Positions 7,468 through 59,378 of a stretch of 61,496 bases of DNA are shown in pieces; within the stretch, counting starts at the first letter, position 1, and each line of letters opens with the position of its first letter. The notes under the pieces were generated by a model that worked only from the letters and a program-made list of their open reading frames with translations, was not told where the DNA came from and ran no database searches. Made by a program: the position numbers and the translations under genes. Origin of the DNA: a virus; UHGV virus genome UHGV-0350099; one strand, given 5' to 3'.

Positions 7468-7484
7468 AGAAAACAAGTTGTTTC
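7468..7484. promoter_or_regulatory. AAACAAGTTGTTT palindrome upstream of parA
   Basis: AGAAAACAAGTTGTTTC about 35 nt before parA start. Confidence 0.5.
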
Positions 7485-7518
7485 AGACGATAATTATATA
7501 CGCAAAGGGAACTCTCCA

Positions 7519-8187
7519 ATGACCAAGATCTTTGTGGTTGGCGGCACAAAGGGCGGGCCTGGCAAATCCACTGTTGCCCAGCAAATTGCCGTTTGCCTGA
7601 AAGTCAAAAAGAAGAAGAAGGTTTATATCACTGATATAGATATTCAGCGCACGACAACGAGCTGGTGTGAAGACCGTCGACAGAACGAAGACCTTGAGCT
7701 GATTCCTTTTGCATACGTTCAGGATGACATCATTAAGCACCTAAAATCGCTTCAGGGTAGAGCTGAGTATGTAGTGGTAGATGCTGGTGGCTTCGACTCC
7801 GAAATTCAGCGACAAGCGATGCTGATGGCTGACGTTATCATTATCCCGCTGCGTCCTAAGCGTCGTGATTTGAAATCTTTACGTGACATCGATCCTATTA
7901 TCGACAATGTTCGCAATGTAAACGATAAAGTGAAGGTCCGCGCGGTCATGAACCAGTGCCCGGCTTTGCCATCACAAGTGTCTCGCATTCTGGCGGCTAA
8001 AGAGATTGTTGAGACGTTTGGCATCGAGTCTGCGCCAGTCAATCTATATAACCGCAACGTCTATGATGATGCGGAAGAGTCTGGTCGTTCTATCTTTGAA
8101 ATGACCGGTAGCGAGCGCGACAAAAAGGCGGAAGCCGAGTTTGAAGAATTTGTAGATTATCTGTTGAGTCTGGAGGAAGAAGAATAA
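7519..8187 (+). CDS. parA: ParA/Soj-family partition ATPase (small, type Ib-like)
   Basis: Deviant Walker A GGTKGGPGKST at N-terminus; 222 aa without N-terminal HTH. Confidence 0.8.
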   Translation: MTKIFVVGGTKGGPGKSTVAQQIAVCLKVKKKKKVYITDIDIQRTTTSWCEDRRQNEDLELIPFAYVQDDIIKHLKSLQGRAEYVVVDAGGFDSEIQRQAMLMADVIIIPLRPKRRDLKSLRDIDPIIDNVRNVNDKVKVRAVMNQCPALPSQVSRILAAKEIVETFGIESAPVNLYNRNVYDDAEESGRSIFEMTGSERDKKAEAEFEEFVDYLLSLEEEE

Positions 8188-8546
8188 TGTCCATGAAAAT
8201 GGGTGACCTAGCAAAGCGCAAAGAGCCTGATGCACCGGCTAAGAACACAACTCCTTTGCGCCAACCAGTCAGACCACAGGGACGCCCGACTCGTGGCAAA
8301 GAGAAAATTAAAAGCCGCACGATGTCACTGGAAGACGAATACTTCGAACTGCTGGAGATGATGAAGTTCATCCCTCGCTTCGAGAAGTTCACCCGTTCTG
8401 ACGTGATTCGCGCAGCCATTTTCCATCTGGCAGAGAAGTCACCGCAGGAAATCGAGGACATCGTGAAACTTAACGAGGCGATCACTGCTGCCGATGTCAC
8501 GATGCGTACCGATGAAATTAAACGCGAGTTAATGAAGAAAGGTTGA
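8187..8546 (+). CDS. Small partition/centromere-binding protein partner (ParG/RHH-like)
   Basis: 119 aa; start overlaps parA stop (TAATG); basic N-terminus, C-terminal region compatible with ribbon-helix-helix. Confidence 0.45.
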   Translation: MSMKMGDLAKRKEPDAPAKNTTPLRQPVRPQGRPTRGKEKIKSRTMSLEDEYFELLEMMKFIPRFEKFTRSDVIRAAIFHLAEKSPQEIEDIVKLNEAITAADVTMRTDEIKRELMKKG

Positions 8547-8558
8547 TATAAATCTCTA

Positions 8559-8594
8559 AGGCTGGTCTGCATTGGACAGCCTTAGAAATATTTC
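8559..8594. terminator. Hairpin between convergent genes (bidirectional terminator candidate)
   Basis: TAAGGCTG-N12-CAGCCTTA inverted repeat between parB-like (+) and 8607-9680 (-). Confidence 0.35.
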
Positions 8595-8606
8595 GTTCTA
8601 TGAAAG

Positions 8607-9680
8607 CTATTCGTAGTTAAGCTCACCGAACAGACTGAACATCAAGTCACCATCCAAAATTTCAAAGGGCAACTCGACATACTCATCCTTATGTCTCGGA
8701 ATTGCGTTGCCGTCGTTAGGGGCATTCTTGGTATAACCTTTTACATGTTTACCGTTTTCTTTTGTATACGGCAGCACGACAATTCGACCGTGATTTTTTG
8801 AAATGATAGTTCCTTCTTTCCAGAGCGTATTGCCTCTTGAGGTGGTTTCGCTTTCGCTAGCAACTTTAACACTCCAACCTACCTGATTTTTGTCCTCAAA
8901 CCAGAAAACAAAGTTGCCAACAACCAGTACCTTTTGCCCATTCCTGAGAGCTTCATCCAGCATTCTTTTTACGCTGGCGAGTTGCAGTAACCGGTTAGCA
9001 CGCGGCAGAAGCATTGAGCGAATAGTCGCTTTTGTTTTTCCCCAATGTGCAGCGCCTGATAAACCAAAACCTCTGGCTATGCGTTCTTGGTAGCAGATCT
9101 TCGCTGTCTTAGCTTTGTTGTTATATGAACATTCCCAAGTGTTAGGAGCAACGAGTTGAAGTGAAACTTGGAATTTGGGAAGAAAAACAAAATGTAAGTA
9201 AGGCATCTCGCTTAGCACGTCAAAAAGGGGTTGACGCAAAGTTTCGTAATCTGGGTTAATTATTAACTCATTTAATGTCACTCGCGGATCGTTGGCGTGT
9301 GCCTTAATTGCTTCGTTGAGCATTATATGCTCTTCATCCATGAGACGTGATTTGGCTTTGAGTGCTTTGTCAACTTTCAAACGCAATGACTTCTTTTGAA
9401 ACATAGATAGAGGAAGTTTTTCAATGTCAAAGCTCACGTTTTTATTCAGCTCTAATGCCGCTTTTCTTGCTTCAGGATAGTTATCGTAGTCGTCATCAAA
9501 AGCGTGGTTTGGCATACCACGATCAACATATCGCCGATACCAAGCAAGGGTTCCATCATTACGGAGTTTCAGACAGAACATCGACCATTTATTCCGTTCA
9601 TATTTAGGCTGAGGCCAAAAAGCCAGTTCGGGAAGGCCATATCCTGGAAGTCTATTCATGCGCATGGTGACAATATCCAC
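8607..9680 (-). CDS. Hypothetical protein in AT-rich accessory segment
   Basis: 357-aa ORF on minus strand; lower GC than flanking replication genes; no motif recognised. Confidence 0.5.
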   Translation of the reverse strand: MDIVTMRMNRLPGYGLPELAFWPQPKYERNKWSMFCLKLRNDGTLAWYRRYVDRGMPNHAFDDDYDNYPEARKAALELNKNVSFDIEKLPLSMFQKKSLRLKVDKALKAKSRLMDEEHIMLNEAIKAHANDPRVTLNELIINPDYETLRQPLFDVLSEMPYLHFVFLPKFQVSLQLVAPNTWECSYNNKAKTAKICYQERIARGFGLSGAAHWGKTKATIRSMLLPRANRLLQLASVKRMLDEALRNGQKVLVVGNFVFWFEDKNQVGWSVKVASESETTSRGNTLWKEGTIISKNHGRIVVLPYTKENGKHVKGYTKNAPNDGNAIPRHKDEYVELPFEILDGDLMFSLFGELNYE

Positions 9681-9922
9681 GAGGCTAAAACACTGATTCT
9701 AACATGATCTCCCTTGATAAATCTGTCAATGACATAGCATCTGGGGTTGGAGTCAAATTATGTTGTTCTTGGTATCCATTAGGAGCCTGTTTCTGTATAT
9801 AAATAATAAGTAACTTATTAAATATATACGGAAGCAGGTCTTTTAAAAGACACCACCAGACCAACTCCCTTCCGTTTTCACTTCCAAAAACTGACACCAG
9901 TCGCTATCATCCGTTCATTGTG

Positions 9923-9944
9923 ATAAGTAAGTAGCTACCTACCA
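9923..9944. promoter_or_regulatory. Palindromic intergenic motif GATAAGTAAGTAGCTACCTACC
   Basis: Member of dispersed TAAGTA/TACTTA family. Confidence 0.4.
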
Positions 9945-9954
9945 GGTGAGACAC

Positions 9955-10695
9955 ATGAGCCAAATCTTTTTCGATACCATCGACAACGACCAGTACGACT
10001 TCATGACAGAGTGGAATACCGCTGTTATGGACAAGTGGGTCGCTGAAAACATTGGTTTGTCGCGCTGTAAAGATGAGGCTGAACTCTTCGAGACGAAGTG
10101 GTTTGATTACCGCGACATGCATCCTCTGATGGCCACCTGTCTATTTACGGAGGCATACAAACGTCAGTACTCAAATATCATGCTGACGCACGGTCGCGAA
10201 CACTTTGAAACAGCTCCGTTCACCACCGGGTTAAAACGCCTGCCTTATCAGGAGTTGTCGACTGCCAATAAAACGTCGCTATGGAAAGCACGCCAGTTTG
10301 CTGACCGCTATTGCTGCTCATACGACTACTTTATCTCCACCGTTCTTTCCGCAGCTGCACGACGACTGTGGGACAAGCTGCCGCGTCCGCAGCATTTGTG
10401 GCAGCCAGAACTGATTGAGATATTTGAAGAGAAATTAGCCAGACGCGCAACAACCCGTCTGGATGACTCTCTCGTTAGCTTTAAGCATATGGGAGACATG
10501 CAGTTCAACCCGATTCAGGAAAGCTATTTTGGGTGGATTCTGGAGCGTTTACGCACCATCCCCCGCAGCAAGCGCATACGCGCAATTTTCTCCGCTATCT
10601 GGTTAATGGAAATCGTTCCAGAGCGCCTTATTTCCGCCCACTTTCCAGAAGAACTGGAAGAAGCACGGCGGTTTATTGATCCCCTATCTAATTAA
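9955..10695 (+). CDS. Hypothetical protein
   Basis: ORF frame with ATG 9955 after palindromic intergenic motif; no motif recognised. Confidence 0.5.
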   Translation: MSQIFFDTIDNDQYDFMTEWNTAVMDKWVAENIGLSRCKDEAELFETKWFDYRDMHPLMATCLFTEAYKRQYSNIMLTHGREHFETAPFTTGLKRLPYQELSTANKTSLWKARQFADRYCCSYDYFISTVLSAAARRLWDKLPRPQHLWQPELIEIFEEKLARRATTRLDDSLVSFKHMGDMQFNPIQESYFGWILERLRTIPRSKRIRAIFSAIWLMEIVPERLISAHFPEELEEARRFIDPLSN

Positions 10696-10703
10696 CTAAT
10701 ACT

Positions 10704-10723
10704 AGAAAACAATTTGTTTAAAA
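10704..10723. promoter_or_regulatory. AAACAATTTGTTTAA palindrome upstream of helicase gene
   Basis: AGAAAACAATTTGTTTAAAA followed by AAAGGAAAGCACATG. Confidence 0.5.
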
Positions 10724-10738
10724 AACAAAGGAAAGCAC

Positions 10739-12079
10739 ATGACCGAACTTTGCCATACAGGACGCGGGCTGTCCGAAGAGTTTGATGAAGATTTCCAGAA
10801 CAGACTGACGGCATATTTTTGTCGTGATCACGAGTTTCTTACTCGTGCGGGAGATCTGGTTGTGCCTAGCCAATTTGCCAATGCGGCCAATGCCATATTG
10901 GTTAATATGGTTTCGGGCTATTACCGTATGTACAAGAGCGCGCCCTCTTCATCTGCGATTCTGGATATGCTTAAGCGTGCGAAACGCGATAAGACTATCC
11001 GTGAGGAACTATTCGCCGATGTTGTTGCTGCGTTTAAGCGCATCCTTGCAGAAAAATTGTCTGATACCTCGTACATGGTTGACCAGGTATCAACCTTCGC
11101 AAAAAGCGTAGCGTTTGATGATGCTCTGATTAAGGCTGCTGAACTGAAAGAGAAGGGCGACTTTCAGGGGGCGATGGCAATCATGGCCAAGGTTCAGCAG
11201 ATTGGATCGAACGAAGCGACCGGAATCTATGACTACTACACCTCCGCAAGTGAGCGATTGAAAGCGCGTGAATATGAGGCTTCAGAGGAGTATGTGCCAA
11301 ACAGCATTACAACTGGACTCCCTCTGCTCGATAGGTTGCTGTACCAAAAAGGCTGGGCGAAGCGTGAAATGGTGCTCTTCATGGGGTTCGCTAAATCCGG
11401 TAAATCGACCGCAATGGGTGAGTTTTCCATAAACGCAACGCTTGCTGGCTACAATGTTCTGTATCTCTCGCTGGAGGTTCACACCACCATTTTATCCGAC
11501 CGTTTTGATGCAAGATTGTCGGAGACAGAAATGTCCAAGCTGGTGGAACGGCGCGATGAGGTTCATCGTAAGTTGGCAGAGTTGGGAGCCACGAAGGGGA
11601 TTGGTAGTTTGTGGGTTGTTGAGCGTCCGTCAGGAAGTATGTCACCGGCAGATCTGGATCGTATGCTTAACAGCATGAAAGCCAATGGCATGGTGCCTGA
11701 CATGGTTGTTGTCGACTATGCAGATTTGATGCGTGCCAGTTATGACCTTCGTGATGATCGCGCCAACATACGTAGTATCTATACCGACTTACGTGCTCTT
11801 TATGACAAACACAACGTTGCTGGTATCACGGCATCGCAGACAAACCGTGAAGGTGGCGCGTCAGAAGTTGCCACAATGATGCACGCTGCCGACAACATCG
11901 AAAAAGTACGTATTGCTGACCTGGTAATAACGATCAACAAAACCGAAGAAGAAGAAGCGAAAGGAGAGGCTCGTCTCTACTTTGCTGGTTCACGTAACCA
12001 GCAGGGAGGGATCAGCATTCGCGTTAAACAAAACCTCGAACAAATGCGCTTCATTGAGCGAATCTTAGACGTTACCTAA
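10739..12079 (+). CDS. DnaB-family/RecA-fold replicative DNA helicase
   Basis: Walker A GFAKSGKST, Walker B VVVDYADLM; conserved start context AAAGGAAAGCACATG. Confidence 0.65.
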   Translation: MTELCHTGRGLSEEFDEDFQNRLTAYFCRDHEFLTRAGDLVVPSQFANAANAILVNMVSGYYRMYKSAPSSSAILDMLKRAKRDKTIREELFADVVAAFKRILAEKLSDTSYMVDQVSTFAKSVAFDDALIKAAELKEKGDFQGAMAIMAKVQQIGSNEATGIYDYYTSASERLKAREYEASEEYVPNSITTGLPLLDRLLYQKGWAKREMVLFMGFAKSGKSTAMGEFSINATLAGYNVLYLSLEVHTTILSDRFDARLSETEMSKLVERRDEVHRKLAELGATKGIGSLWVVERPSGSMSPADLDRMLNSMKANGMVPDMVVVDYADLMRASYDLRDDRANIRSIYTDLRALYDKHNVAGITASQTNREGGASEVATMMHAADNIEKVRIADLVITINKTEEEEAKGEARLYFAGSRNQQGGISIRVKQNLEQMRFIERILDVT

Positions 12080-12161
12080 AAAATAAGCGTGGAGAACACC
12101 TCCACGCTTGATTCATTGGTGAAACAACTTTTCTTTTGCCAAACCACAAAAGAAAAACACA

Positions 12162-13342
12162 TGAGCCTTTATGTTATATCAACATTTAGGTTGGTCACAA
12201 TATTGCCTGTTAAAAGTGGAATTATCGTGAGCGAGCTGAAAGAGCTAATTACCGAATTAGATTTTGAACAATGGTTGGACACTGAAGGTATCGTTTATCG
12301 ACGTGGAGGCGTGAGTGCTCGCGGTCGTGAAGTGAATATCAAGGAGTGTCCGGTATGCGGCAGCTCCAACTGGAAGGTATATTTCAATCTGACCAGTGGC
12401 GTCGGTAAATGCTTCGCTGGTGATCATCCCGAAGAGATTCAGTTCAATAAGCTGGTCTTCCTCAAGCACTACAGCGGCAAATCACGACGACAGTTCGAGG
12501 AATATGTGCAGAACGCCCTTCTTTCCCAGGGGTGGGCACCAAAGAAAGAAGAGATAGTGCTTGCAAGCACAGTCGAGTTAGAGGGACCACTTGCACTCCC
12601 TCGTCATTACGAACTTCCTATAGATGGCCGTCTTCCAGACTATCTGGTTGAACGAAACATATCGCCTGAAATGGCAAAGTATTTTGACCTACGATACTGC
12701 GTCGAAGGCAAGCACGCTTATGTAGATCCGTATACAGATCAGGTTAAAGGACAGATATTCGATATGCGAATACTGATACCGGTTTACGATCTGGATGGGG
12801 TAATGAAGACATTTCAGGGGCGAGACATTACCGGTACAGCTGAACGTCGCTACCTCTTTCCTATGCAGCTTCCAGCTTCAGGTAAGTTTCTCTACAACGG
12901 CCATAATGCGGTCGGCAAACAGACTGTAGTTGTCTGTGAGGGGGCGTTCGATGTTATGGGAGTTAAACGAGCTATTTTTGATGAAGAAACATTACGTGAT
13001 TACGTGGAACCGATAGGAACGTTCGGGATGCATCTATCTGGTAACACCACTCAGGATGCAGAAGATCAGTTGGGCGCGTTCCTGACGCTCAAGGCGCGTG
13101 GATTACGTAATGTGATCATGATGTGGGATAGTGAAAAGCAAGCTATACGCAACACTATGGCCGCAGCCAGGCGACTGACCAGTATTGGTCTTAATGTCAA
13201 AGTAGCATGTTTGGGCGAGGAAGGACTCGACCCAGGCGATGCAACGCCAGAACAAATTATCAAAGCCTATTATCGGGCAAAACCGTATACCAAACAGTTG
13301 GAGTTGCAAAGCAAGGTTTTGGGCATTAAGGCGCTATCGTAA
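12162..13342 (+). CDS. DNA primase (zinc finger + Toprim)
   Basis: CPVCGSSNW...KCFAGDH zinc-binding motif; Toprim-like VVCEGAFDVMG and MMWDSEK; start chosen at ATG 12162 after AAAAACAC. Confidence 0.7.
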
Positions 13343-16708: not shown

Positions 16709-16730
16709 GATAAGTATTTACTTACTTATC
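16709..16730. promoter_or_regulatory. Palindromic intergenic motif GATAAGTATTTACTTACTTATC (dispersed family)
   Basis: Near-perfect palindrome of TAAGTA/TACTTA half-sites; one of about 15 similar intergenic sites. Confidence 0.5.
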
Positions 16731-21104: not shown

Positions 21105-21202
21105 CCCCTCTTCTCCCTGCGCGAATGGCTTAGTTCCCTGTTCGCGCAGTGCTACATTAAACACACTAGTAAATAATTTGTTTTCATAACAAAGGATTAG
21201 CC

Positions 21203-23327: not shown

Positions 23328-23349
23328 GATAAGTAACTACTTACCATAG
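23328..23349. promoter_or_regulatory. Palindromic intergenic motif GATAAGTAACTACTTACCATAG
   Basis: Member of dispersed TAAGTA/TACTTA motif family. Confidence 0.45.
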
Positions 23350-28372: not shown

Positions 28373-28644
28373 AAGAATTATGGCGCTTGTTGAGGAAGTC
28401 ACTCCTCTTACGCACTTTGTTTTGCCATGCCGGCAGTTAGCTTCTGCCTTTGACTATTCATGCGGCAACCCCGCATTTCGCCACAATGGGCAATTCACTT
28501 TTATGGAATAAACTGGCCGTTGTGTCGATTTAATTAGCATGGCCTTACCATGCTAATTTATTCAACTTGTACAATCCTACAAATCTATCCACTCAGGCTT
28601 ACACCGTCTTCGTTATTGTAGAAATGAGGATCATCAGCGTTGAA

Positions 28645-28860
28645 TCAGCTTAGAGCAACGACATTTGCTGCTGCTGGGCCTTTAGCACCATTCTCGATAG
28701 AGAATTCGACCTGCTGGCCTTCTTCCAAAGTGCGGAAATTATTACTCTGAATTGCCGAAAAATGTACAAAAACATCTTTACTGCCATCAGCAGGAGAAAT
28801 AAAGCCAAAGCCTTTATCAGAGTTAAACCATTTTACTAAACCAGTCATTTTATTAGACAT
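28645..28860 (-). CDS. cspA: Cold-shock protein, CspA family
   Basis: [38 protein letters not shown]... with RNP motifs KGFGFI and VFVHF; start trimmed to MSNK. Confidence 0.9.
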
Positions 28861-29075
28861 AGATATTACCTTCTTAATTTTGTGAGCCACATAGTGCGGC
28901 GAGAATTTGATCTGTATAGATTGGGACTTACTTAGGCACTTAAGGAGGAGACTCACGAAGAAGGGAAATCAGAAGATAACACTGAACTGAGACTGCTTTA
29001 CTAAAACTGCTTACATAAGGTCTGTCTTGCAAACCAACGATGCTATTAACGCATACCCCTTCTTTTCATGCAACC
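28861..29075 (-). promoter_or_regulatory. cspA-type promoter and long 5' UTR
   Basis: On minus strand reads TTGCAT -35-like, TTAAT -10-like and a cold-box-like TGCAAGACAGACC; about 180-nt leader as in enterobacterial cspA (recalled from memory). Confidence 0.5.
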
Positions 29076-35524: not shown

Positions 35525-35544
35525 ATATAAGTACTTACTTATAT
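35525..35544. promoter_or_regulatory. Palindromic intergenic motif ATATAAGTACTTACTTATAT
   Basis: Member of dispersed TAAGTA/TACTTA family. Confidence 0.45.
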
Positions 35545-35573
35545 TTTCGCATAACAACCACATAGGAAAACAC

Positions 35574-35774
35574 ATGATCAAAATCTATCTATTGGCAGTA
35601 GCCACAGGCCTTTCAGTGGCTCTCATCTACGGTTTACTGGTTCCGTCGCTGATTTCTACCAAGAGTGATTTAGCCGTCATGTTTGGAGTTATCGTTGGTT
35701 TTGGTGCTCCTGTAATCGGTCTTATTGCTGGTCGTAAGTTTATCAACTCATTAATCAAAGCAAAGGGGAAATAA
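35574..35774 (+). CDS. Small membrane protein (two predicted TM helices)
   Basis: Start at ATG 35574 after GGAAAACAC; hydrophobic segments LLAVATGLSVALIYGLLV and VMFGVIVGFGAPVIGLIAG. Confidence 0.4.
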   Translation: MIKIYLLAVATGLSVALIYGLLVPSLISTKSDLAVMFGVIVGFGAPVIGLIAGRKFINSLIKAKGK

Positions 35775-36608: not shown

Positions 36609-36625
36609 CTCCCCTAAAAAGTTCA

Positions 36626-36649
36626 GGCGTCCAGTTGGACGCCTTTTTT
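36626..36649 (+). terminator. Rho-independent terminator (AGGCGTCC/GGACGCCT family)
   Basis: GGCGTCC-AGTT-GGACGCC followed by TTTTTTA. Confidence 0.65.
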
Positions 36650-36666
36650 ATCGCAATTATCTTATT

Positions 36667-36687
36667 AAGAAAACAATTTGTTTAAAA
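36667..36687. promoter_or_regulatory. AAACAATTTGTTTAA palindrome upstream of 36700 gene
   Basis: AAGAAAACAATTTGTTTAAAA followed by GGATAAGAAAACATG. Confidence 0.5.
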
Positions 36688-36699
36688 GGATAAGAAAAC

Positions 36700-37125
36700 A
36701 TGACAGCTATTAAGAAACTCTACGATGCCGCAAACGTGGCTCTGGATGTTATTGATGATGAAGTAGCAAAAGGCTTTCCTGAACCTGATTGGGCGCATCA
36801 GCTACGAAACGCTATCGCAGAAATGACCCCACCAGATCCAACCCCCGACGAGACAGACTGGCAGCGATTCATCCGTATGTACGCTCAGGAAATAGGTCCA
36901 ACGCCAACGGCAGAGCAGGCAATGCTGCTGAAATACTTCAAAGAGGCGGGAGAGGATTTACCAATTGATGACTCAGCATATTGGTTCCACTGCGCATGGC
37001 GTAAGTATGACGTGATATTCACACAAGGCATGGGAAGCAAAGATATGGTTGTGTGGCATCTACTCCATATAGACACAGCCGTTGACAGAGTTATTGAACA
37101 GTTTTTCCCTAAACAAGAAGATTGA
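36700..37125 (+). CDS. Hypothetical protein
   Basis: 141-aa ORF preceded by AAACAATTTGTTTAA motif. Confidence 0.5.
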   Translation: MTAIKKLYDAANVALDVIDDEVAKGFPEPDWAHQLRNAIAEMTPPDPTPDETDWQRFIRMYAQEIGPTPTAEQAMLLKYFKEAGEDLPIDDSAYWFHCAWRKYDVIFTQGMGSKDMVVWHLLHIDTAVDRVIEQFFPKQED

Positions 37126-37180
37126 TCGCCTATTCATAACTAACAAAATAAGTAAACACTAACCACAAAAGGAAAAACAC

Positions 37181-37456
37181 ATGAGAGTTTTAGTTCGAAT
37201 CGTTACCAGCACTGTCTATGACGTGTTTCCGCTTTTTATGGTCAAAGCCGATGGCCTTAACGACGAAGAAACTGACGCGCTGATCCAGCGTATTCTCGTT
37301 GAATATACAGGTCATGACGCTGATTCAGTGATGGTTGATGATGATGGTGTTTGTTGGCATAACGGCAACTGTTGGTACGTAGAAGAGACTCAACAAATCA
37401 GTGATGAAGATGCCGAACATCTTGAGCGTATTTTAAGCATCAGCACTTTTGAGTGA
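37181..37456 (+). CDS. Hypothetical acidic protein
   Basis: 91-aa ORF with conserved AAAGGAAAAACACATG start context. Confidence 0.5.
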   Translation: MRVLVRIVTSTVYDVFPLFMVKADGLNDEETDALIQRILVEYTGHDADSVMVDDDGVCWHNGNCWYVEETQQISDEDAEHLERILSISTFE

Positions 37457-41152: not shown

Positions 41153-41276
41153 CCCTCCAGATCGTATATTGGCGTAGATAGAATCTACGCCCCCTCAAAA
41201 TAGCTCTCATAGCGTTCTACAGTGATCCTGTCTTATTTTTAGTCATACAGACAAGCAAAGTTGCGTCACAACAAAT

Positions 41277-41294
41277 AGGTATATACTTACTTAT
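41277..41294. promoter_or_regulatory. Palindromic intergenic motif AGGTATATACTTACTTAT
   Basis: Member of dispersed TAAGTA/TACTTA family, upstream of sbcD-like gene. Confidence 0.4.
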
Positions 41295-41406
41295 AAATTT
41301 TGTATATTAAGACGCTCGTTTCATTCCTAACATACCGTTATGCATAGTTGTTTACCTTCTCATTGCTCTTAAAATTTGTATCAAAATAACCACAAAGGAA
41401 AAACAC

Positions 41407-42492
41407 ATGACTTTGCCATACGGCGTCATTTCTGACTGCCACTACCACAAATGGGATGCGTTCTCCACGACGAACGCAGAGGGGCTTAACTCCAGACTTG
41501 AAATACAGTTGGAAGCAACGAAAGAAGCAGCCATCGCCATGAAGAAGGCCGGTTGTAAGTACATGTTGGTTGCCGGTGACACATTTCACGTCCGAGGAAC
41601 TGTGTCCCCTTCTGTTTTGCATTACGTAACTGAAACGTACAAGTGGATTATCAACGAGCTTGATCTGACAGTAGTAATGCTGGCCGGTAATCACGATCTT
41701 GAAACCAACGATTCAGTATATAGCGCCAACGCAGCAGCATCGCTGAGTTCTATCGGCGTGGTAATCGTATGTGGCAAGCGCCCACACTCAATAAAAATTG
41801 GTGATGTGACTGTCCACCTGATTAGCTGGCGTAACAATCATGCGGAGCTTATCAGCGATCTGAAAGCATTACGTAAGAGCGTAGAAGGTGATAATCATGA
41901 CGTTGTTATCCATACATCCATTAACAAAGCCATTCCAACAATGCCTGACGTCGGTATCGATGCGCAGGAGTTAAAGGATATCGGCTTTCGTCTCGTGCTT
42001 AGTGGGCATTACCACAACCACAAAGAGGTCATTCCTGGAGTTATCAGTGTCGGTGCACTGACTCATCAAAATTGGGGAGATGTTGGATCTCTGGCTGGCT
42101 ACATGATCGTAAACCCGGACGGCAGTTTCAGTCACTACGAAACCAGTGCGCCTAAATTCATTAACCTGGAAGATGATGTTGCTGATGACCAAATTCGCGG
42201 CAACTACGTGCGTTTCCGCGCCGTAATTGAGAACGATGAAGAAGGCATTAAGTACCAGAACATCCTCAAAACAATGGGTGCAAAAGGTGTCGTGTGCAAC
42301 TTCATCCGTAAGTCATCAATGATGGAAGGGACAGCCAGCACAACTGAAACCAGCAAAATCGATAGCCTGGGAGAGTCGGTATCTGCTTATTGCAAGATTG
42401 TCCACGATACTGACGGCGGATTTGATCTGAGCAAGTTGGATATTTTGTGTCAGGAAATCCTCACCGAAGCGGAGAGTTCGGAGGCTGTGTGA
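41407..42492 (+). CDS. sbcD: SbcD/Mre11-family nuclease (metallophosphatase)
   Basis: Phosphoesterase motifs SDCHYH, AGDTFH, GNHD, SGHYHN. Confidence 0.8.
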   Translation: MTLPYGVISDCHYHKWDAFSTTNAEGLNSRLEIQLEATKEAAIAMKKAGCKYMLVAGDTFHVRGTVSPSVLHYVTETYKWIINELDLTVVMLAGNHDLETNDSVYSANAAASLSSIGVVIVCGKRPHSIKIGDVTVHLISWRNNHAELISDLKALRKSVEGDNHDVVIHTSINKAIPTMPDVGIDAQELKDIGFRLVLSGHYHNHKEVIPGVISVGALTHQNWGDVGSLAGYMIVNPDGSFSHYETSAPKFINLEDDVADDQIRGNYVRFRAVIENDEEGIKYQNILKTMGAKGVVCNFIRKSSMMEGTASTTETSKIDSLGESVSAYCKIVHDTDGGFDLSKLDILCQEILTEAESSEAV

Positions 42493-45957: not shown

Positions 45958-45978
45958 GATAGGTAAGTGCTTATCTAT
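45958..45978. promoter_or_regulatory. Palindromic intergenic motif GATAGGTAAGTGCTTATCTAT
   Basis: Shares GGTAAGTGCTTA core with the palindrome upstream of the XRE repressor. Confidence 0.5.
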
Positions 45979-48382: not shown

Positions 48383-48418
48383 CTTGTTTAAACAAATAAG
48401 ATAACAACTTGTTTAAAC
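48383..48418. promoter_or_regulatory. Two adjacent AAACAA/TTGTTT palindromes upstream of nrdB
   Basis: TTGTTTAAACAA and AACAACTTGTTTAAAC followed by AAAGGAAAAACACATG. Confidence 0.5.
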
Positions 48419-48444: not shown

Positions 48445-49587
48445 ATGTCATATTCAACGTTCCGTTTGGGTGCTAATGATGCAACCAAAGAGCCTATGTT
48501 CCTCGGACAATCTGTCAACGTGGCACGTTACGATCAGCAAAAATACCGTGATTTTGAAAAGTTGATTGAACGTCAATTGTCTTTCTTCTGGCGGCCGGAA
48601 GAAGTTGATATTTCGAGCGATCGTATCGACTTCAACACGAAGCTGCGGGACCACGAACGTCACATTTTTCTGAGCAATCTCCGTTATCAAACGTTACTCG
48701 ACTCAGTTCAGGGACGTAGCCCAAATGCAACGCTGCTGCCGCTTATCTCTATTCCTGAACTGGAAACGTGGGTTGAAACATGGTCTTTCTCTGAGACTAT
48801 CCATAGCCGCAGCTACACCCACATTATTCGTGGCATGGTGGACGATCCGAGCATTGTTTTTGACGGTATTGTTACGGATGAAGAAATCATCAACCGAGCG
48901 ATCAGTATCTCTGCTGAATATGACAGGCTTTATGGGATGACCTGCGAGCGCCAGTCGTTAGGTGAGAAAGAGTTTGAACGTCTGTACGTAAATGAATATG
49001 GCTGGGAGCCATACCCTTTGCATCGTCAGCTTTTCCGCACGTTGGTGTCCATTAATGCGCTTGAGGCGATCCGTTTCTATGTAAGTTTTGCATGTACGTT
49101 TGCCTTTGGCGAACGGAAGTTGCTTGAGGGTAACACCAAAATTATGCGCTTTATTGCCCGTGATGAAGCTCTGCATTGCGAAGGAACTGAACGCATGATC
49201 CGCTTCATGCGTACCGGTCGCGAAGGTTTATTGTGGAAAGAGATTGCTGCTGATGAAGAAAACGTCATTTACGACACCATGAAATCAGTCGCCGAACAAG
49301 AAATGAACTGGGCAGACTATCTCTTCAAAGACGGTTCGATGATTGGTTTAAACGCGGATATTCTGAAGACCTATGTAAAATACCGAACCAATCTGGCTAT
49401 GAATCGTCTTGGCCTGAAGGCTTTATTTCCAGAAGTTACCACTGATCCGCTGGTCTGGATGAACAAGTGGTTGTTAACCGACACACTGCAAATTGCACCA
49501 CAAGAGGCAGAGCAAAGCACATATCTGGTAGGTCAGATCGATTCTACCGTGGATAAGGCTTCTCTAAGCCAGTTTGCTGACCTGTAA
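48445..49587 (+). CDS. nrdB: Ribonucleoside-diphosphate reductase beta subunit (class I)
   Basis: Di-iron ligand pattern [13 protein letters not shown] and RDEALH; start at ATG 48445 in conserved start context. Confidence 0.9.
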
Positions 49588-50673: not shown

Positions 50674-50691
50674 AATAAGTGGTTACTTATC
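50674..50691. promoter_or_regulatory. Palindromic intergenic motif AATAAGTGGTTACTTATC
   Basis: Member of dispersed motif family, directly upstream of thyA. Confidence 0.45.
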
Positions 50692-53402: not shown

Positions 53403-53822
53403 ATGTTTAGTGAAATGTTGCTTGAAGATGAACTGGATCGGAAAACAACAGAGGCTTTGATTCGTGTAGCGGACGAACATTCCCGGTCGCTTATGAGCGA
53501 TCGAGAGGCTCGTCTGGCTATTCGTGCCATATTCGAAACTGCGCAGGGGCTTGTTGGTACACAAGTGGGTGAAGCCATTAACATCGCCATGTCTCAGTTC
53601 AGTGAAGGCAGTAAAAAGCCTCTGTTTCCTATGCATTTGATGCTGGCTGGTGGCACGGTGCTTTATATCTCTGTTTGTCTGGATAGCAACCAAATCAATA
53701 TTCTCAACACTGTGTCAGGTAAGTGGAAAGATCCGATTGTCTGTGAAACCAGTGAAGAAACTTTGAAAAAAGCGGCTCAATTTGTACGTAGCGCACTACT
53801 TAAGGGCGCTAAGAAGTTGTAA
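53403..53822 (+). CDS. Hypothetical protein
   Basis: 139-aa ORF; no motif recognised. Confidence 0.45.
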   Translation: MFSEMLLEDELDRKTTEALIRVADEHSRSLMSDREARLAIRAIFETAQGLVGTQVGEAINIAMSQFSEGSKKPLFPMHLMLAGGTVLYISVCLDSNQINILNTVSGKWKDPIVCETSEETLKKAAQFVRSALLKGAKKL

Positions 53823-53831
53823 GGAGTTCTG

Positions 53832-54389: not shown

Positions 54390-54394
54390 AACAA

Positions 54395-54433
54395 AAGCCT
54401 ACTTTAAAAAGTTTAAAGTAGGCTTTCTTTTAA
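54395..54433 (+). terminator. Rho-independent terminator (long AT-rich stem)
   Basis: AAGCCTACTTTAAA-AAG-TTTAAAGTAGGCTT followed by TCTTTT. Confidence 0.55.
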
Positions 54434-54547
54434 AGAACAGTCGCCTTTCAATCATTTCCTGCCTGTATTTAATACTTTTCCGCCTGATAGGTTTAGTCAA
54501 AATGTAGCCATCGAAACGCAAATGTAACCAAACAGAAGGAGACTTAC

Positions 54548-55357
54548 ATGAGTTCGGTTGAAAATGTAATGACAAATGATGATCTGGACGAGCTGACAGC
54601 CATGTTGCAATCACTTGATGAACCAGTAAAAAAAGCTGCACAGGTTGAAAATACTGATGATATTGACGATCTGCTGCTCGGCCTAGATGCTGGCGTAGCC
54701 ATGAGTTCTGATGATGTTGCCGAAGAACTGTTCAATGAAGAAAAAGCAGGTGATTTCAGCTCTGCTTTAAATGAGTTGGAGTTAGCGCATGAGCCTATAA
54801 ACGTAATTAACGTTGAAAGTGTTGAAGCTGCCGAAAACGAGCCAGAACAATTGGGATTTATTGAGGTTGAAGAGTGTGTTGAGGTTAATGATGAATTAAA
54901 AGTTCAACAGTCAAATGATAGCAATACAAATAAAAAAGCTCGTACTGCAAGAGGTCCTCGTTTTACTTTAAGTGATAAAGATGATTCGTTTTTCAATAAA
55001 GCGGGCTTAGAAAAAGATATTTTCTTAGACGCTTACGATAACGCGCCTGTCAAAGCAAAGGATAAGATATTAAACCTTCTTAATTGGTTTAGCGGAGGTC
55101 CAGATATTAGTGTTTACACGGTAATTTCCATGAGACACCTTCTCACAGAAAAGAAGGCTACAAGTAATAGTATTAAGATTGCTTTAATGAGCAATCCAGA
55201 AAAACCGTATCCGCTTAACACTGCGTCAACTCAGGCTGGGCAAATGATGGCTGTATTTCCAGCGACAGGAATTGCCGTTAGAGACGGTGGAAATCTAACA
55301 TTGAACGAAGAATCACCGATCGTTAAGAAGTTTGTCGCGGAGTACACTATTGGATGA
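54548..55357 (+). CDS. Hypothetical acidic protein (AT-rich gene)
   Basis: 269-aa ORF, Asp/Glu-rich N-terminal half; lower GC than neighbours. Confidence 0.45.
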   Translation: MSSVENVMTNDDLDELTAMLQSLDEPVKKAAQVENTDDIDDLLLGLDAGVAMSSDDVAEELFNEEKAGDFSSALNELELAHEPINVINVESVEAAENEPEQLGFIEVEECVEVNDELKVQQSNDSNTNKKARTARGPRFTLSDKDDSFFNKAGLEKDIFLDAYDNAPVKAKDKILNLLNWFSGGPDISVYTVISMRHLLTEKKATSNSIKIALMSNPEKPYPLNTASTQAGQMMAVFPATGIAVRDGGNLTLNEESPIVKKFVAEYTIG

Positions 55358-55432
55358 CGTTCCCCTACTGAAAATAAAGCCCATAGAGAGCTTTATAGTG
55401 CTGGGTAAGCCAATCACATACCCAGCACCACA

Positions 55433-55480
55433 AAAACGCGCCAGAGAGCTTCTCGTTTGCATTTCTGGCGCGTTTTATTT
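55433..55480 (+). terminator. Rho-independent terminator (12-bp stem)
   Basis: AAACGCGCCAGA ... TCTGGCGCGTTT followed by TATTTGATT. Confidence 0.55.
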
Positions 55481-55509
55481 GATTGCCAGACATAAAATCA
55501 AATGCAAAA

Positions 55510-55530
55510 ATAGGTATTTACTTACCTATC
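55510..55530. promoter_or_regulatory. Palindromic intergenic motif ATAGGTATTTACTTACCTATC
   Basis: Member of dispersed motif family, upstream of methyltransferase gene. Confidence 0.45.
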
Positions 55531-55540
55531 GAGAAAGAAG

Positions 55541-56134
55541 ATGATTGCAGCCGAAAAAATCAAACAGCGAAAGCGCGACAACTCTCTTCGTGACCTCTGG
55601 AGAACACCTGACTGGCTGTTTTCTGCCATTCAACGTTATCTTGGAGTGACATTTGATGTTGACGTTGCCTGCAACAAGGACAATGCAAAGCTGCCTAATT
55701 TCATAGGCGTTGAGCGTGATGCTTTGAAATCTGAATGGGGACAGCCAGGTACAATTGCCTTCCTCAATCCACCCTACTCCAAAATCTCCCCCTGGATTGA
55801 TGCAGCTATACGTGAGCAGGCTCGCGGAGTTACAACAGTGATGCTAATTCCTCAATCCCTAGATACAAAGTGGTATGAGCGTGCAACAGAGTGTGCGAAT
55901 GAGACGATTATTCTGTCTGGTGGCCGCGTAGCGTTTGTCGAGCCTGACGTCAATCTGGGTCAGGTAGAAGTAAACATCAACCCCGGTGGCAGTATGCTCG
56001 TTGTTTTTCGAGGATTCTGTCAGGACGCTGGGCACTCTATAAGCAAGATCCCTTTGGACGTCATGAAAAGTCTGGGAGGGTATGATCCTGCGAATGTGGT
56101 CAGAAAAAAAAGACCATCAAAGAAGGCTGCTTAG
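55541..56134 (+). CDS. DNA N6-adenine methyltransferase (phage Dam-like)
   Basis: Motif IV AFLNPPYSKI (NPPY); 197 aa typical of small phage N6A methyltransferases. Confidence 0.6.
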   Translation: MIAAEKIKQRKRDNSLRDLWRTPDWLFSAIQRYLGVTFDVDVACNKDNAKLPNFIGVERDALKSEWGQPGTIAFLNPPYSKISPWIDAAIREQARGVTTVMLIPQSLDTKWYERATECANETIILSGGRVAFVEPDVNLGQVEVNINPGGSMLVVFRGFCQDAGHSISKIPLDVMKSLGGYDPANVVRKKRPSKKAA

Positions 56135-56320
56135 TTTGTTCTGGCGTCTGTAATTAGCCTGCTTCTGTATATATAAATAACTACATATTAATTATTAATA
56201 TACGGAAACAGGCTGTTTTGTATCAGAGACTCCAGACCTGAACATCACTACAGAATCCACTAGAACCCCTTCCCAGACGCTTTAAAATCGATTTTATGAA
56301 CCACTTTAAGGAAAACTAAC

Positions 56321-56551
56321 ATGCCATACCCGACCAATGTTGTTGCGCTCGTAGAGAGCGATTTTCTGGCTAAGGCTCGTGAAATGATGAAAGACCGCGA
56401 GCAGGCTTTCAACTTGTACGAATGGGCAATTAAGTGCTTGCATCTTGGGGAACATCGCGAACTTGTTGAACAGCTTTTAGGTGAGTTGATCAACGAGGTG
56501 TTTGCCTTGAATGTTCAACTACATGGTCGAGAAAATAATCAATCGAAATGA
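56321..56551 (+). CDS. Hypothetical small protein
   Basis: 76-aa ORF. Confidence 0.4.
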   Translation: MPYPTNVVALVESDFLAKAREMMKDREQAFNLYEWAIKCLHLGEHRELVEQLLGELINEVFALNVQLHGRENNQSK

Positions 56552-57135
56552 TAGATAAGTACAAACTATTCATAAAATGAATTGTAAGTGCTAAGATCTG
56601 ATAGTTTCCAGTCGTAGACTGGAGACTCGACCTGATGGGTGGGGGTAAGCGTCACTGGCGTCAGGTTTAAAAAAGCTCACTACCAGCGTAGAACCGGTGC
56701 CGTTTAGGTGTCGGGGAAGGGGGAACCAAAGTGAGCGGAGACAAGGGTCACTTTATGATTGTCGAGTCTGGGGTGTTTCGAGAGGTTGAATCCAGTACTC
56801 CCCTTCATAAAGTGTGGGAAGATCTCGGTTCTGGGGTGCTGTCATCCATAACTTCCCAAGTCTAAGCTGGCAGTAGACTTAGGCCATAACTTTTCAGGTT
56901 ATGAAACGACCAGGTTGGTGAGGGATTTTTATACTCACCTCCCTGGGAGAGTATTACCTGAAAAGACAACCTCTCACTTCGTTCGAGGTGAACTTCACTC
57001 ACTTCGTTCGTTCAGTTCAGGTTTATAAAAACCTGTTCTGGGAAGTAATTTGTTTATTTTAATAATTATTAACACGCACGCGTGTGCGCACGCGCGAGGA
57101 AAAAAATCGGCGCGGCGCTTGATTCAGGAGTTTAT
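56552..57135. other. About 580-bp non-coding region with direct repeats and a GC-rich double palindrome
   Basis: No ORF of 60 aa or more; CACTCACTTCGTTCG tandem repeat near 56985-57015; CACGCGTG/GTGCGCAC palindromes at 57073-57098. Confidence 0.4.
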
Positions 57136-57729
57136 ATGACGACGAAGACACCAGCCCGATCGCAAGACAAAACTCGCAAAAAAGCCAAAAACAAAAATTC
57201 TCCCCGCACCAATTCCACAACGCCTGTCGTAGAGTTCAATCCCCAGCTTAAAACCGTGAAAATCTTCAGTGATGGCTCTTGCCTTAAAAATCCGGGTGGC
57301 CCGGGCGGTTACGGTATAGTTCTCCAGTATCGTGGTGAGGAACGCGAGTTCTCAGATGGTTTTCATAGCACCACCAATAACCGCATGGAGATGATGGGGG
57401 CACTTATCGGGCTGGAGCGTTTGAAATATCCATGCAACGTTATTTTGCACTCTGATAGCCAGTATCTGAAAAACGGCATGACACAGTGGATGAAATGGTG
57501 GAAACGCAATGGATGGGTGACTTCTGACAAAAAACCGGTAAAGAATGTTGATCTGTGGAAGCGTCTGGATGAGGCTGCAAGTCGACATAATGTTCGCTGG
57601 AAGTGGGTTAAAGGTCACGCCGGGCATCGTGAAAATGAAATATGTGATCGACTCGCGAAGATCGCAGCTTTTTCCGCAGCAGATATGCCTCACAAGAAAG
57701 ATATTGGTTTTGTTTACAACAAGCAGTAA
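57136..57729 (+). CDS. rnhA: Ribonuclease HI with basic N-terminal extension
   Basis: [57 protein letters not shown]; start at ATG 57136 after RBS AGGAG. Confidence 0.9.
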
Positions 57730-57747
57730 GTAAGTGTTTACCTATCA
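57727..57747. promoter_or_regulatory. Palindromic intergenic motif GTAAGTAAGTGTTTACCTATC
   Basis: Member of dispersed motif family. Confidence 0.4.
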
Positions 57748-57874
57748 TTTTAAATCATGTATCTTATCGGCGTCAGGATGACAATGTGTCGGTAAGACAC
57801 AGTTCCAGGATGGAACGAGAAAGGCGGCTGGCAATCGCCAGCCGCAACTCTTTCTGACACTGGATGGAGTCCAC

Positions 57875-58369
57875 ATGGCACGTCAAACCTATTTCACTTC
57901 TGCAACTAAACGTCCTCGTTCACTACGTCAAATTTTGGCCGAATTATTTAGCGGTCGTGTTCTGTCACGTCTTGATGAACTAGAGACTGCCGTTCGGTTG
58001 CTGAATGAACGTTTAGATAAGCAAGCGTCAGTTGTTGCGAACGTGGGGGCGATTGTTACCTCTGGTTCTTCACGCGAAGCGAAAAGTACACGGCCTTTAG
58101 TGAAGGAGAAAAACAACAAGGACAGTTCGAATGGAAAATTTTCAAAGAAAGAGGCTGAAACCAATGGCCTACGTTCTCATTATAGTTTCACTGGCGACGG
58201 TAGCCGTTCCAGCCGGCCAGAGCCTTTTGATGCCGGGTTCATCCATCACCACACCTCCGTCGACGACAATTACCACCACTCCAGTAGAGCGTCCTGTCAC
58301 TCTGGATGGGATGACGGTGGATGCGATACCTCAAGTTCATCCAGTTACTCAGGATCATGCTGTGACTAA
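57875..58369 (+). CDS. Hypothetical Ser-rich protein
   Basis: 164-aa ORF; low-complexity C-terminus. Confidence 0.4.
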   Translation: MARQTYFTSATKRPRSLRQILAELFSGRVLSRLDELETAVRLLNERLDKQASVVANVGAIVTSGSSREAKSTRPLVKEKNNKDSSNGKFSKKEAETNGLRSHYSFTGDGSRSSRPEPFDAGFIHHHTSVDDNYHHSSRASCHSGWDDGGCDTSSSSSYSGSCCD

Positions 58370-58378
58370 GGCGGTTGT

Positions 58379-58576
58379 ATGAACTGGTTTTCAAATCACT
58401 TTGGAAAAACTTGGCTGGCGATTCTGGCTTTCATAGCTCTCATGGCCGCCGGTTGGGTATCGAACATTGTAAAACTCGTTTGCTCTGGTGATCTCCAGTT
58501 TCAGGCTGGTATGACCTTGGCTCGTGTTGTTGGGATTTTTGTTTTTCCAGTCGGTTCGGTACTTGGTTATTTCTGA
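58379..58576 (+). CDS. Small membrane protein
   Basis: 65 aa with two hydrophobic segments. Confidence 0.35.
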   Translation: MNWFSNHFGKTWLAILAFIALMAAGWVSNIVKLVCSGDLQFQAGMTLARVVGIFVFPVGSVLGYF

Positions 58577-58628
58577 CGGTTGTTAGTGCATATGCATTGC
58601 CCGTCTTTTCGTAAGCAATTCATGTAAC

Positions 58629-58651
58629 TAGAAAACAACTTGTTTTAACAA
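58629..58651. promoter_or_regulatory. AAACAACTTGTTTT palindrome upstream of TerB-like gene
   Basis: TAGAAAACAACTTGTTTTAACAA followed by AAAGGAAAGCACATG. Confidence 0.5.
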
Positions 58652-58669
58652 ATAACAAAAGGAAAGCAC

Positions 58670-59095
58670 ATGTTAGGTTTATTCAAAAAGAAAACTCGTA
58701 AAGCTGTTATCGAGGTCAAAAAAATGGAGAACCGAGATGCGGTTGAAGCCACCGTGTGGGGCGCGTACATGATCTCCTATGCCGATGGCACATGCGACGC
58801 AAAGGAAATTTCCATTCTTGAGAAAACAATTGCAGCTCTGCCTGCGTTTTCTCCGTTTGCTGGTGAGATTGCCCAAATGAGCGCCAATATCCGTGCTCAA
58901 TACGAAGCCTCACCGCGCCGCGCTAATGCCCAGGCTTTACGTGAGCTGGCTGATGTGGCCGGGACTAATGATGCAGTAGATGTACTGTGTCTGTGCCTTG
59001 ATATTGCCGACCAAGACGGTATTGGCGAACAAGAAGAGCTGGCCCTGAAAAAGATCGCACAGGCGCTCCAGTTGTCACTGGATGCTTATCTCTAA
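58670..59095 (+). CDS. TerB-like domain protein
   Basis: 141 aa; pattern AYMISYADGTCDAKEISILEK...CLDIADQDGIGEQEE resembles TerB/tellurite-resistance-like fold; weak. Confidence 0.35.
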   Translation: MLGLFKKKTRKAVIEVKKMENRDAVEATVWGAYMISYADGTCDAKEISILEKTIAALPAFSPFAGEIAQMSANIRAQYEASPRRANAQALRELADVAGTNDAVDVLCLCLDIADQDGIGEQEELALKKIAQALQLSLDAYL

Positions 59096-59255
59096 TGCTT
59101 GAGAGATTCCGGCTTGTGACCGTCATTGCTCTTCTGGTGATGGCGGTGTTGGTGGATTTTACGGGAAAGATGATGTCTGTCATTTCTGATGGCGTCCTCA
59201 TTGGTCTGGCGATCTACTTCGCTTATCCGCTAGTCCGTAAAGCAACGTGTTAATG

Positions 59256-59285
59256 ACAAGGGCCAAATGGCCCTTGTGTTTCGTT
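59256..59285 (+). terminator. Rho-independent terminator
   Basis: ACAAGGGCC-AAAT-GGCCCTTGT followed by GTTTCGTT. Confidence 0.5.
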
Positions 59286-59357
59286 GACCGAAATAGAGAG
59301 TTTGCACCTTTACGTTTAGCTTGCTCCCCTTTTATGCCACATCACAATAAAGCCAAT

Positions 59358-59378
59358 AAGAAAACAACTTGTTTAAGC
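59358..59378. promoter_or_regulatory. AAACAACTTGTTTAA palindrome upstream of 59393 gene
   Basis: AAGAAAACAACTTGTTTAAGC followed by AGGAAAAACACATG. Confidence 0.5.

Follow-up and report, generated by a model that had tools for sequence, protein, structure and literature searches.

The 61,496-nt viral genome UHGV-0350099, the whole of which is the window of this analysis (positions are counted from its first letter), carries seven copies of a directional 17-base sequence shortly upstream of genes such as parA, a DnaB-like helicase gene and nrdB, and this sequence is very probably the binding site of a regulator, encoded by the element itself, that keeps about 17 operons off in the plasmid state. 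The segment from 20000 to 44000 (24 kb) is 98.4% identical to Escherichia phage Cyrano (OV696614.1), that is, to the phage-plasmid pLF82 of E. coli LF82, an SSU5-like phage-plasmid with a genome of 108 kb, and about 80% identical to Salmonella phage SSU5. We regard the feature as real, conserved and regulatory, and infer its promoter and operator function from the sequence. The best reading, to which we assign a probability of about 0.4, is that the 17-mer is a DNA operator and that its binder is the 119-amino-acid partner protein of ParA.

The motif is strongly enriched in the window. With one mismatch allowed, AAACAANTTGTTT is matched seven times, against 0.56 expected and a maximum of three in 100 dinucleotide shuffles, and the extended pattern AGAAAACAANTTGTTTAA, with up to three mismatches, is also matched seven times, against 0.40 expected. 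An earlier note on this DNA, written from its letters alone, had placed a palindrome of this kind before six genes (parA, the helicase gene, the gene at 36700, nrdB, a TerB-like gene and the gene at 59393) and had proposed a motif scan with shuffled controls as a check; all six sites are present, and the scan bears out the enrichment. The distance of about 20-35 nt upstream of the start given in that note was roughly right, as the end of the 17-mer lies 15-34 nt from the ATG at the seven window copies, all of which are intergenic and on the + strand. The palindrome itself is thus confirmed, but the conserved unit is larger than the 13 bases of the palindrome and has a direction. When 26 forward copies of Cyrano and SSU5 are aligned, the consensus 17-mer is AGAAAACAA-N-TTGTTTA, in which symmetry is limited to the inner 6+6 bases; the left-hand AGA and the right-hand A are also conserved without being mirror images, so that the full unit reads AGAAAACAANTTGTTTA. 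Among some 290 distinct variants from about 170 related loci, changes are more frequent in the right half than in the left. About 70% of copies are oriented towards the gene.

Within the window the copy before parA (AGAAAACAAGTTGTTTC, 7468..7484, +) precedes the ATG at 7519 by 34 nt and is kept in about 80 related contigs. The copy before the DnaB-like helicase gene (AGAAAACAATTTGTTTA, 10704..10720, +; ATG 10739, gap 18 nt) has orthologous counterparts in SSU5 and in the lineages L132-L134, and the same sequence, AGAAAACAATTTGTTTA, recurs before a DUF7238 gene (36668..36684, +; ATG 36700, gap 15 nt). The nrdB copy (AGATAACAACTTGTTTA, 48399..48415, +) ends 29 nt before the ATG at 48445, its variant AGATAACAA being present in SSU5 as well, and two further copies precede a TerB/TciA-like gene (AGAAAACAACTTGTTTT, 58630..58646, +; ATG 58670) and a gene for a 189-amino-acid protein at 59393 (AGAAAACAACTTGTTTA, 59359..59375, +). 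The copy before a cobT-like gene is weaker (AGTAAATAATTTGTTTT, 21168..21184, +; ATG 21203), and its SSU5 orthologue is perfect (AGAAAACAAATTGTTTA).

Over the entire Cyrano genome there are about 17 good copies, almost all of them intergenic. They precede terS (two in tandem), parA, the helicase gene, cobT, CYRAN_58, nrdB, tciA and CYRAN_87, and further copies stand before a run of small genes at 93-98.5 kb. The unchanged 17-mer is found at orthologous positions in SSU5, in the Klebsiella phages pJN2-26 and p4727, and in relatives from Nissabacter, Enterobacter and metagenomes; more distant lineages, reached through their ParA partner, carry it as well. The parA site was found in all lineages examined, and in the divergent lineage L134 it is a perfect 17-bp palindrome (GAAAACAACTTGTTTTC). 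Since the intergenic flanks diverge as the motif stays constant, the site must be under selection. A published description of the motif or of its control circuit was not found, and we know of no enterobacterial regulator with such a consensus.

The position of the motif relative to predicted promoter elements is also constrained. In all 26 aligned forward sites from Cyrano and SSU5 a T occurs 11 nt upstream of the motif, and we read this T as the position at which a -10 hexamer ends. Of 74 sites drawn from seven elements, 29 have their best -10 match at -16/-17, and it mostly takes the extended form TGnGATAAT or TGnTATTAT. The distance from motif to start codon, unlike the spacing to the -10, is variable (about 13 to 34 nt). 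A consensus scan gave no canonical -35 element 16-18 bp upstream and no forward two-hexamer promoter at 36668, 58630 or 59359, which agrees with dependence on an extended -10. Transcription would begin about 4 nt before the motif, which would therefore span about +5 to +21. Among the window sites this layout is fitted by the helicase gene, with a putative -10 hexamer TCTAAT (10687..10692, +) 11 nt upstream of the motif copy, by cobT, with a putative extended -10 TGcTACATT (21150..21158, +) that in SSU5 reads TGaTAAATT at the same place, by the DUF7238 gene, with the -10-like sequence CAATTAT (36654..36660, +; TATTAT in SSU5), and by the gene at 59393, with the -10-like hexamer CACAAT (59343..59348, +) at -16..-11 relative to the motif. 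It is less clear for parA, nrdB and the TerB-like gene, where the -10 may overlap the motif. The DUF7238 copy at 36668 is separated by 23 nt from an intrinsic terminator on its upstream side, a hairpin followed by a T run (36625..36644, +); the -10-like sequence lies between the two, and the gene therefore needs a promoter of its own within about 50 nt.

Some promoters outside the window have a second copy of the motif. An inverted copy lies exactly 49 bp upstream, at about -38, in 11 promoters and 23 bp upstream in five more, and direct copies in tandem, 25 bp apart, are found before terS and as a pair in Nissabacter-type elements; no second copy occurs at any of the seven window sites. Several of the upstream copies abut the terminator of the preceding gene. 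As copies upstream of the -10 would be absent from the predicted mRNA, they point to a role at the level of DNA.

Two of these arrangements have features of their own. Cassettes of the early cluster (for example Cyrano 93111-93178 and SSU5 88318-88383) have a nearly symmetric -10 region between their two motif copies, which shows TGCGATAAT and TGTTATTAT on opposite strands; divergent transcription is therefore possible, and the cassettes could fire both ways, the reverse transcript then carrying the motif and, after it, the neighbouring hairpin. Upstream of terS (Cyrano 54-95, SSU5 53-94) a GC-rich hairpin, AGAGCGC...GCGCTCT, and a stretch rich in T come after the two motif copies, and the packaging or late operon may thus also be controlled by termination and read-through, besides the motif.

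Expression in the lysogen is mostly low behind the motif. In RNA-seq of the LF82 lysogen (PMC9928086, S1 Table) the median value for Cyrano genes is 9.8, and seven motif genes are at background: terS (7.1), cobT (7.8), CYRAN_58 (5.7), nrdB (12.9), tciA (7.0), CYRAN_87 (7.1) and CYRAN_101 (7.5). Higher values were recorded for three others, namely the helicase gene (21), CYRAN_111 (25.5) and parA (50); the ParA partner stands at 89, the FljA-like gene discussed below at 18 and CYRAN_117 at 114, and two genes with ParB domains are at background (5.0 and 9.5) (PMC9928086). Several of the silent motif promoters have near-consensus extended -10 elements, and their silence therefore points to active repression or to rapid loss of the mRNA. 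The earlier note had suggested a co-regulated promoter/operator class, and the enrichment of promoter-proximal sites, their conservation, the fixed spacing to the -10 and the silence of most of the genes in the lysogen all favour such a class; its promoter and operator function is what these observations would imply.

An explanation in terms of RNA structure found little encouragement. The motif leaders have predicted folding energies of -0.7 to -2.3 kcal/mol with z-scores of -0.7 to +0.5, so that a stable fold was not found, and in the six symmetric pairs compensatory changes are rare among the approximately 290 variants (3 against about 190 one-sided changes). No motif site was matched by Rfam, whose only matches were a cspA thermoregulator and tRNA genes, three out of the four present. 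In view of the weak fold, the lack of compensation and the absence of an Rfam match, an RNA hairpin or a known RNA family was rejected. Two promoter types were set aside as well. The direct contact of the conserved block with the ribosome-binding site had suggested a promoter for a phage RNA polymerase of the T7 or N4 kind, but an RNA polymerase gene is not annotated in Cyrano or SSU5, and a host-type -10 occurs at a fixed distance. A late promoter of the P1 type, with an activator-bound dyad at about -22, is not compatible with a ribosome-binding site 2-20 nt past the dyad, which leaves no room.

The reading that we favour is that of a DNA operator in the initially transcribed region of promoters used by the host RNA polymerase with sigma-70, which would have a -10, often TGn-extended, and no recognisable -35. 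It is favoured by the dyad symmetry, by the copies found upstream or in tandem, by the constant spacing to the -10 and by the site at parA. A protein bound there would cover about +5 to +21 and would block open-complex formation or promoter escape, and at some promoters the inverted copy 49 bp upstream could strengthen repression. A single protein of the plasmid state would in this way hold down parA, the helicase gene, cobT, nrdB, the small early genes and the terminase operon.

The candidate for this protein is encoded in the par operon. The parA gene (7519..8187, +) encodes an ATPase-only ParA of 222 amino acids with Pfam and NCBIfam matches, in which a DNA-binding domain was not detected and which we read as type Ib. 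The ATG of the next gene (8187..8546, +) overlaps the parA stop codon, an arrangement of translational coupling, and in the sequence of its 119-amino-acid product a basic tail precedes a short strand (KSRTMSL) and two helices separated by a loop, the first EDEYFELLEMM and the second starting TRSDVIRAAI (TRSDVIRAAIFHL). The protein has a weak match to the aCcr1 ribbon-helix-helix family (E=2e-4, below the family cut-off), its remote relatives share the strand-helix-helix pattern, and one marginal match (E=0.078) is named Arc/MetJ ribbon-helix-helix by its source; a monomer structure model of the protein was too poor to use. It is probably a ribbon-helix-helix partner of ParA, a family membership for which these matches give weak support. 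The protein is 91-100% identical across the elements of E. coli, Salmonella and Klebsiella, a conservation that matches the unchanging site. In the Raoultella lineage, where the partner is only 42% identical and its strand reads SRSLS, the parA site has lost its right half and the helicase site is degenerate (one lineage, 20 kb); the motif is unchanged in lineages with 48-64% identity of the ParA partner. The Klebsiella phage ST13-OXA48phi12.3 is without a ParA partner, but its record of 84 kb, against 103-120 kb for its relatives, is possibly incomplete, and it was not used as a test. If the 119-amino-acid protein is indeed the binder, it would autoregulate parA, as is usual for partners of this kind, and would serve as a silencer of genes across the element, comparable to omega of pSM19035 or KorB of RK2.

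Several observations weigh against this assignment. The region 6900-8700 contains no array of short repeats and only a single dyad, and known ribbon-helix-helix partition proteins bind arrays next to parA; a centromere array near parA was thus rejected, and a repeat flagged at 6942 proved to be a chance match. Known proteins of this type sit over the promoter core and not at +14. The motif is directional, with its AGA flank and better-conserved left half, and a symmetric dimer on DNA needs no such direction. Its place, without exception, is in the predicted leader, shortly ahead of the ribosome-binding site, a position that an RNA target would fit equally well. The gene parA, although behind the motif, is 5-fold above background in the lysogen, and the model does not explain how repression would be lifted on induction.

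Two other gene products of the element were rejected as binders. CYRAN_45, annotated as a master repressor, is unlikely, as SSU5 has the same motif without an annotated counterpart at that place. CYRAN_98, an S24 peptidase that might have been a CI-like repressor, is a 129-amino-acid UmuD-like peptidase domain, and no frame with a DNA-binding domain was found upstream of it.

The directionality of the motif and its place in the leader keep alive a reading at the level of RNA, and the element encodes a protein that would suit it. The main rival reading, conceivable if rather unlikely, is that the motif is an mRNA leader operator for a FljA-family protein encoded outside the window (CYRAN_114, Cyrano 100780-101301, -; SSU5_121, SSU5 96897-97415, -), which would bind the unstructured, A-rich and U-rich 17-mer, block translation and hasten mRNA decay, as FljA does on fliC mRNA. 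This protein has a full-length match to Pfam Flag1_repress (FljA; E=1e-80) and a predicted tandem Sm/Hfq-like fold. Its gene is present in 12 of the 14 matching phage records (11 distinct genomes, SSU5 having been deposited twice), all of them SSU5-like, and in every SSU5-like phage record that the search returned; six of the records are from Klebsiella. As Klebsiella has no flagellin and no flagella and the FljA-like gene is nevertheless kept there, targets of the protein are to be expected on the element itself. Among the elements of the predicted leaders the motif is the most over-represented; it lies 13-34 nt before the start codon, its directional flanks and better-conserved left half suit a single-stranded target, and the FljA-like gene is above background in lysogens (18 against the median of 9.8). 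The leader of Salmonella fliC, as given by a primer sequence (PMC5056187), also holds the motif core CAAGTTGT 19 nt before the ATG, yet this match is just 8 nt long, and the E. coli fliC leader is spaced differently (CAA-CGAC-TTG). An RNA target would, moreover, leave unaccounted for the inverted copies fixed 49 bp upstream of the motif, beyond the -10 and outside the mRNA, and it is the spacing to the -10 that is fixed, that to the ribosome-binding site being variable. The motif is unchanged where the FljA-like protein falls to 54-57% identity, and the leader of the FljA-like gene itself lacks the motif, on which ground autoregulation of that gene was rejected. The more far-reaching proposal, that some 17 leaders of early, replication, partition and packaging genes form a translationally repressed regulon of a tandem-Sm (Hfq-like) protein of the FljA family, of which Salmonella FljA would be a domesticated relative, we likewise consider unlikely.

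The evidence for a DNA site (fixed -10 spacing, upstream copies and lack of an RNA fold) would serve equally well for a binder other than the ParA partner, a reading that we consider improbable. The candidates comprise an 88-amino-acid protein encoded upstream of terS, the 92-amino-acid CYRAN_117, the pair of ParB-domain proteins, a host factor and an activator. The 88-amino-acid protein adjoins the terS motif pair and has weak matches to winged-helix regulators (Sta1, Lrs14 and the LexA N-terminus), and CYRAN_117 is conserved and expressed in the lysogen (114); the terS region excepted, however, the motif is absent from the promoters of these candidates themselves. The KorB operators of RK2, and hence the ParB-domain pair, are brought to mind by the many scattered copies of a 13-bp palindrome, some of them near -38, but both of those genes are at background in the lysogen. 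An activator in contact with RNA polymerase would often bind near -38, where some copies lie, but the best-conserved copy is downstream of the start, in the position of a repressor. An unchanged motif across genera would suit a conserved host factor, against which stand the want of a known enterobacterial regulator with this consensus and of any published description of the sequence that we could find. It is a good deal less probable still, and indeed very improbable, that the motif has no dedicated binder and is a cis-acting, unstructured A/U-rich translational enhancer copied as part of a promoter-leader cassette. The leaders are indeed unstructured, the neighbouring start context is standardised in 10 genes, the promoter cassettes of the early cluster are alike outside the motif, which suggests spread by duplication, and the phage T7 gene 10 leader (CTAGAAATAATTTTGTTTAAC...AAGGAG) would agree with the helicase site CTAGAAAACAATTTGTTTAAA at 17 of 21 positions. 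Richness in A and U by itself, however, leaves the strongly conserved C and G and the dyad symmetry unexplained, and such an enhancer would account neither for the inverted upstream copies, the tandem copies at terS and the copy at parA nor for the silence of most motif genes in the lysogen.

Comparison with known systems suggests that the nearest analogues are the partition proteins that serve as global regulators of plasmids (omega, ParG, KorB) and the C1 operators scattered over P1. As with omega of pSM19035 and ParG of TP228, a small protein with a ribbon-helix-helix-like pattern and a basic N-terminal tail is encoded right after an ATPase-only ParA, and a site lies at the parA promoter, here 34 nt before parA. 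Omega controls several unrelated promoters and binds inverted heptads with a half-site geometry of 7-8 bp, and the half-sites of the present element are likewise inverted and 7-8 bp apart. Omega and ParG bind arrays of 7-10 short repeats adjoining the genes they control, whereas the element has about 17 single dyads over 108 kb, mostly downstream of the predicted start and at phage lytic functions. KorB of RK2, a ParB-family partition protein with a helix-turn-helix, is a global repressor that acts through a dozen or more dispersed 13-bp O_B palindromes, some of these operators lying about 39 bp upstream of start sites. The element shares with it the dispersed 13-bp palindromes, some near -38, and a partition protein as candidate binder; it differs in that its ParB-domain genes are silent in the lysogen and the site sequence is unrelated.

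The C1 repressor of P1 acts on many 17-bp operators, which are asymmetric and non-palindromic, over a plasmid prophage of about 100 kb, at replication and lytic genes. The 17-bp sites of the element are similarly scattered over a phage-plasmid before replication and lytic genes; their sequence differs, no C1 homologue turned up, although none was specifically sought, and CYRAN_45 is the sole gene annotated as a repressor in Cyrano. The likeness to FljA and fliC lies in the FljA-family protein, in a leader target before the ribosome-binding site and in the shared 8-nt core; the differences are that FljA has one known target against about 17 here, that the match is short, and that the inverted copies are outside the predicted mRNA. 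In its geometry the site resembles lac O1, as the centre of the dyad would fall at about +13/+14, within the footprint of RNA polymerase, and some promoters have an auxiliary copy further upstream, but at 49 bp the auxiliary copy is too close for a simple loop. A published account of the silencing of lytic genes in the plasmid state of SSU5-like phage-plasmids was not found.

The earlier note had also attached to the motif class an almost identical ribosome-binding and start context, said to be shared by at least ten genes. The pattern GGA[AG]A.{0,3}CACATG has eight matches in the window against 0.175 expected (maximum of two in 200 shuffles), and AAAGGAAARCACATG, with up to two mismatches, has seven against 0.32. 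The context AAGGAAA(A/G)CACATG occurs at ten starts (10739, 12161, 24823, 30842, 35574, 37181, 41407, 48445, 58670 and 59393), the helicase gene providing a standard example (AAAGGAAAGCACATG, 10725..10741, +). Nine of the ten head accepted or evident genes, and the remaining one, 12161, is an in-frame ATG within the primase frame, so that the count of ten holds if this proposed primase start is included. As a property of the motif class the context did not survive: it coincides with the palindrome at only four of the ten starts (10739, 48445, 58670 and 59393), and among the six genes without a palindrome several lie behind a second palindrome family, TAAGTAnnTACTTA. With so few of the context genes carrying it, start context and motif are therefore independent features. 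A near-identical leader of about 23 nt, AACCACA(A)AAGGAAAAACACATG, is found at 35551-35576, 37158-37183, 41384-41409 and 12138-12163, before genes that have no palindrome, and the Raoultella lineage (L294) has a similar leader, AAAACAAT-AAAGGAAAACACATG.

The family TAAGTAnnTACTTA is matched 24 times in the window, with overlaps, which makes about 18 separate places, for example 16711-16724, 23330-23343, 35528-35541, 41276-41289, 45960-45973, 50676-50689 and 55511-55524. It is often followed by CTTATC and then by a -10 resembling TAAGAAT or TATAAGAT, and it lies over the -35 and spacer region of its promoters. In SSU5 it precedes early and structural genes, and it is also present in the Klebsiella and Nissabacter relatives. 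This is probably the sequence that the earlier note had treated as a first motif family, and probably the site of another regulator.

Motif and start context also bear on the choice of start codons. In the primase frame, whose longest open reading frame begins at 12089, the ATG at 12161 is preceded by the context ACCACAAAAGAAAAACACATG and is probably the true start, whereas Cyrano is annotated with a GTG at 12227. The annotated start of CYRAN_105 (Cyrano 95805) falls inside a motif copy and that of CYRAN_110 (Cyrano 97903) lies upstream of one; the true starts are likely to be at about 95826 and about 97972, the latter being the start of SSU5_115, and both follow a ribosome-binding site located after the motif. 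The DUF7238 gene begins with ATG in the window (36700) and has ATA at this place in Cyrano (58633), where the coding sequence is annotated from an ATT nine bases downstream; the Cyrano gene may be inactive or mis-annotated.

The window as a whole contains, in order, genes for tail fibres, lysis, a toxin-antitoxin system, parA, replication, recombination and nucleotide metabolism, nearly all of them on the + strand, with four tRNA genes at 17.5-18.1 kb. Next to the par operon a reading frame of 357 amino acids without a family match (8607-9680, -) occupies the place at which Cyrano has CYRAN_30 on the + strand, a difference that we read as a local gene replacement. The stretch 28620-29038 (-), which is not annotated in Cyrano, matches the cspA thermoregulator of Rfam over its full length (187.6 bits), so that a cold-shock-protein gene, together with the leader that regulates it, seems to be present on the element.

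Phage-plasmids of the SSU5/pHCM2 type occur commonly in E. coli, Salmonella, Klebsiella and Enterobacter, some of them with antibiotic-resistance genes. For these elements the motif offers a concrete handle, as a single 17-base site would link about 17 operons with two named candidate regulators, and it is of use in annotation, where it marks the starts of operons and exposes several mis-called start codons. Should the FljA-like protein prove to be the binder, its family, of which only one target is known, would have a member that serves as global translational regulator of a mobile element. If instead it is the ParA partner that binds, partition and the silencing of the phage programme would be coupled through one protein.

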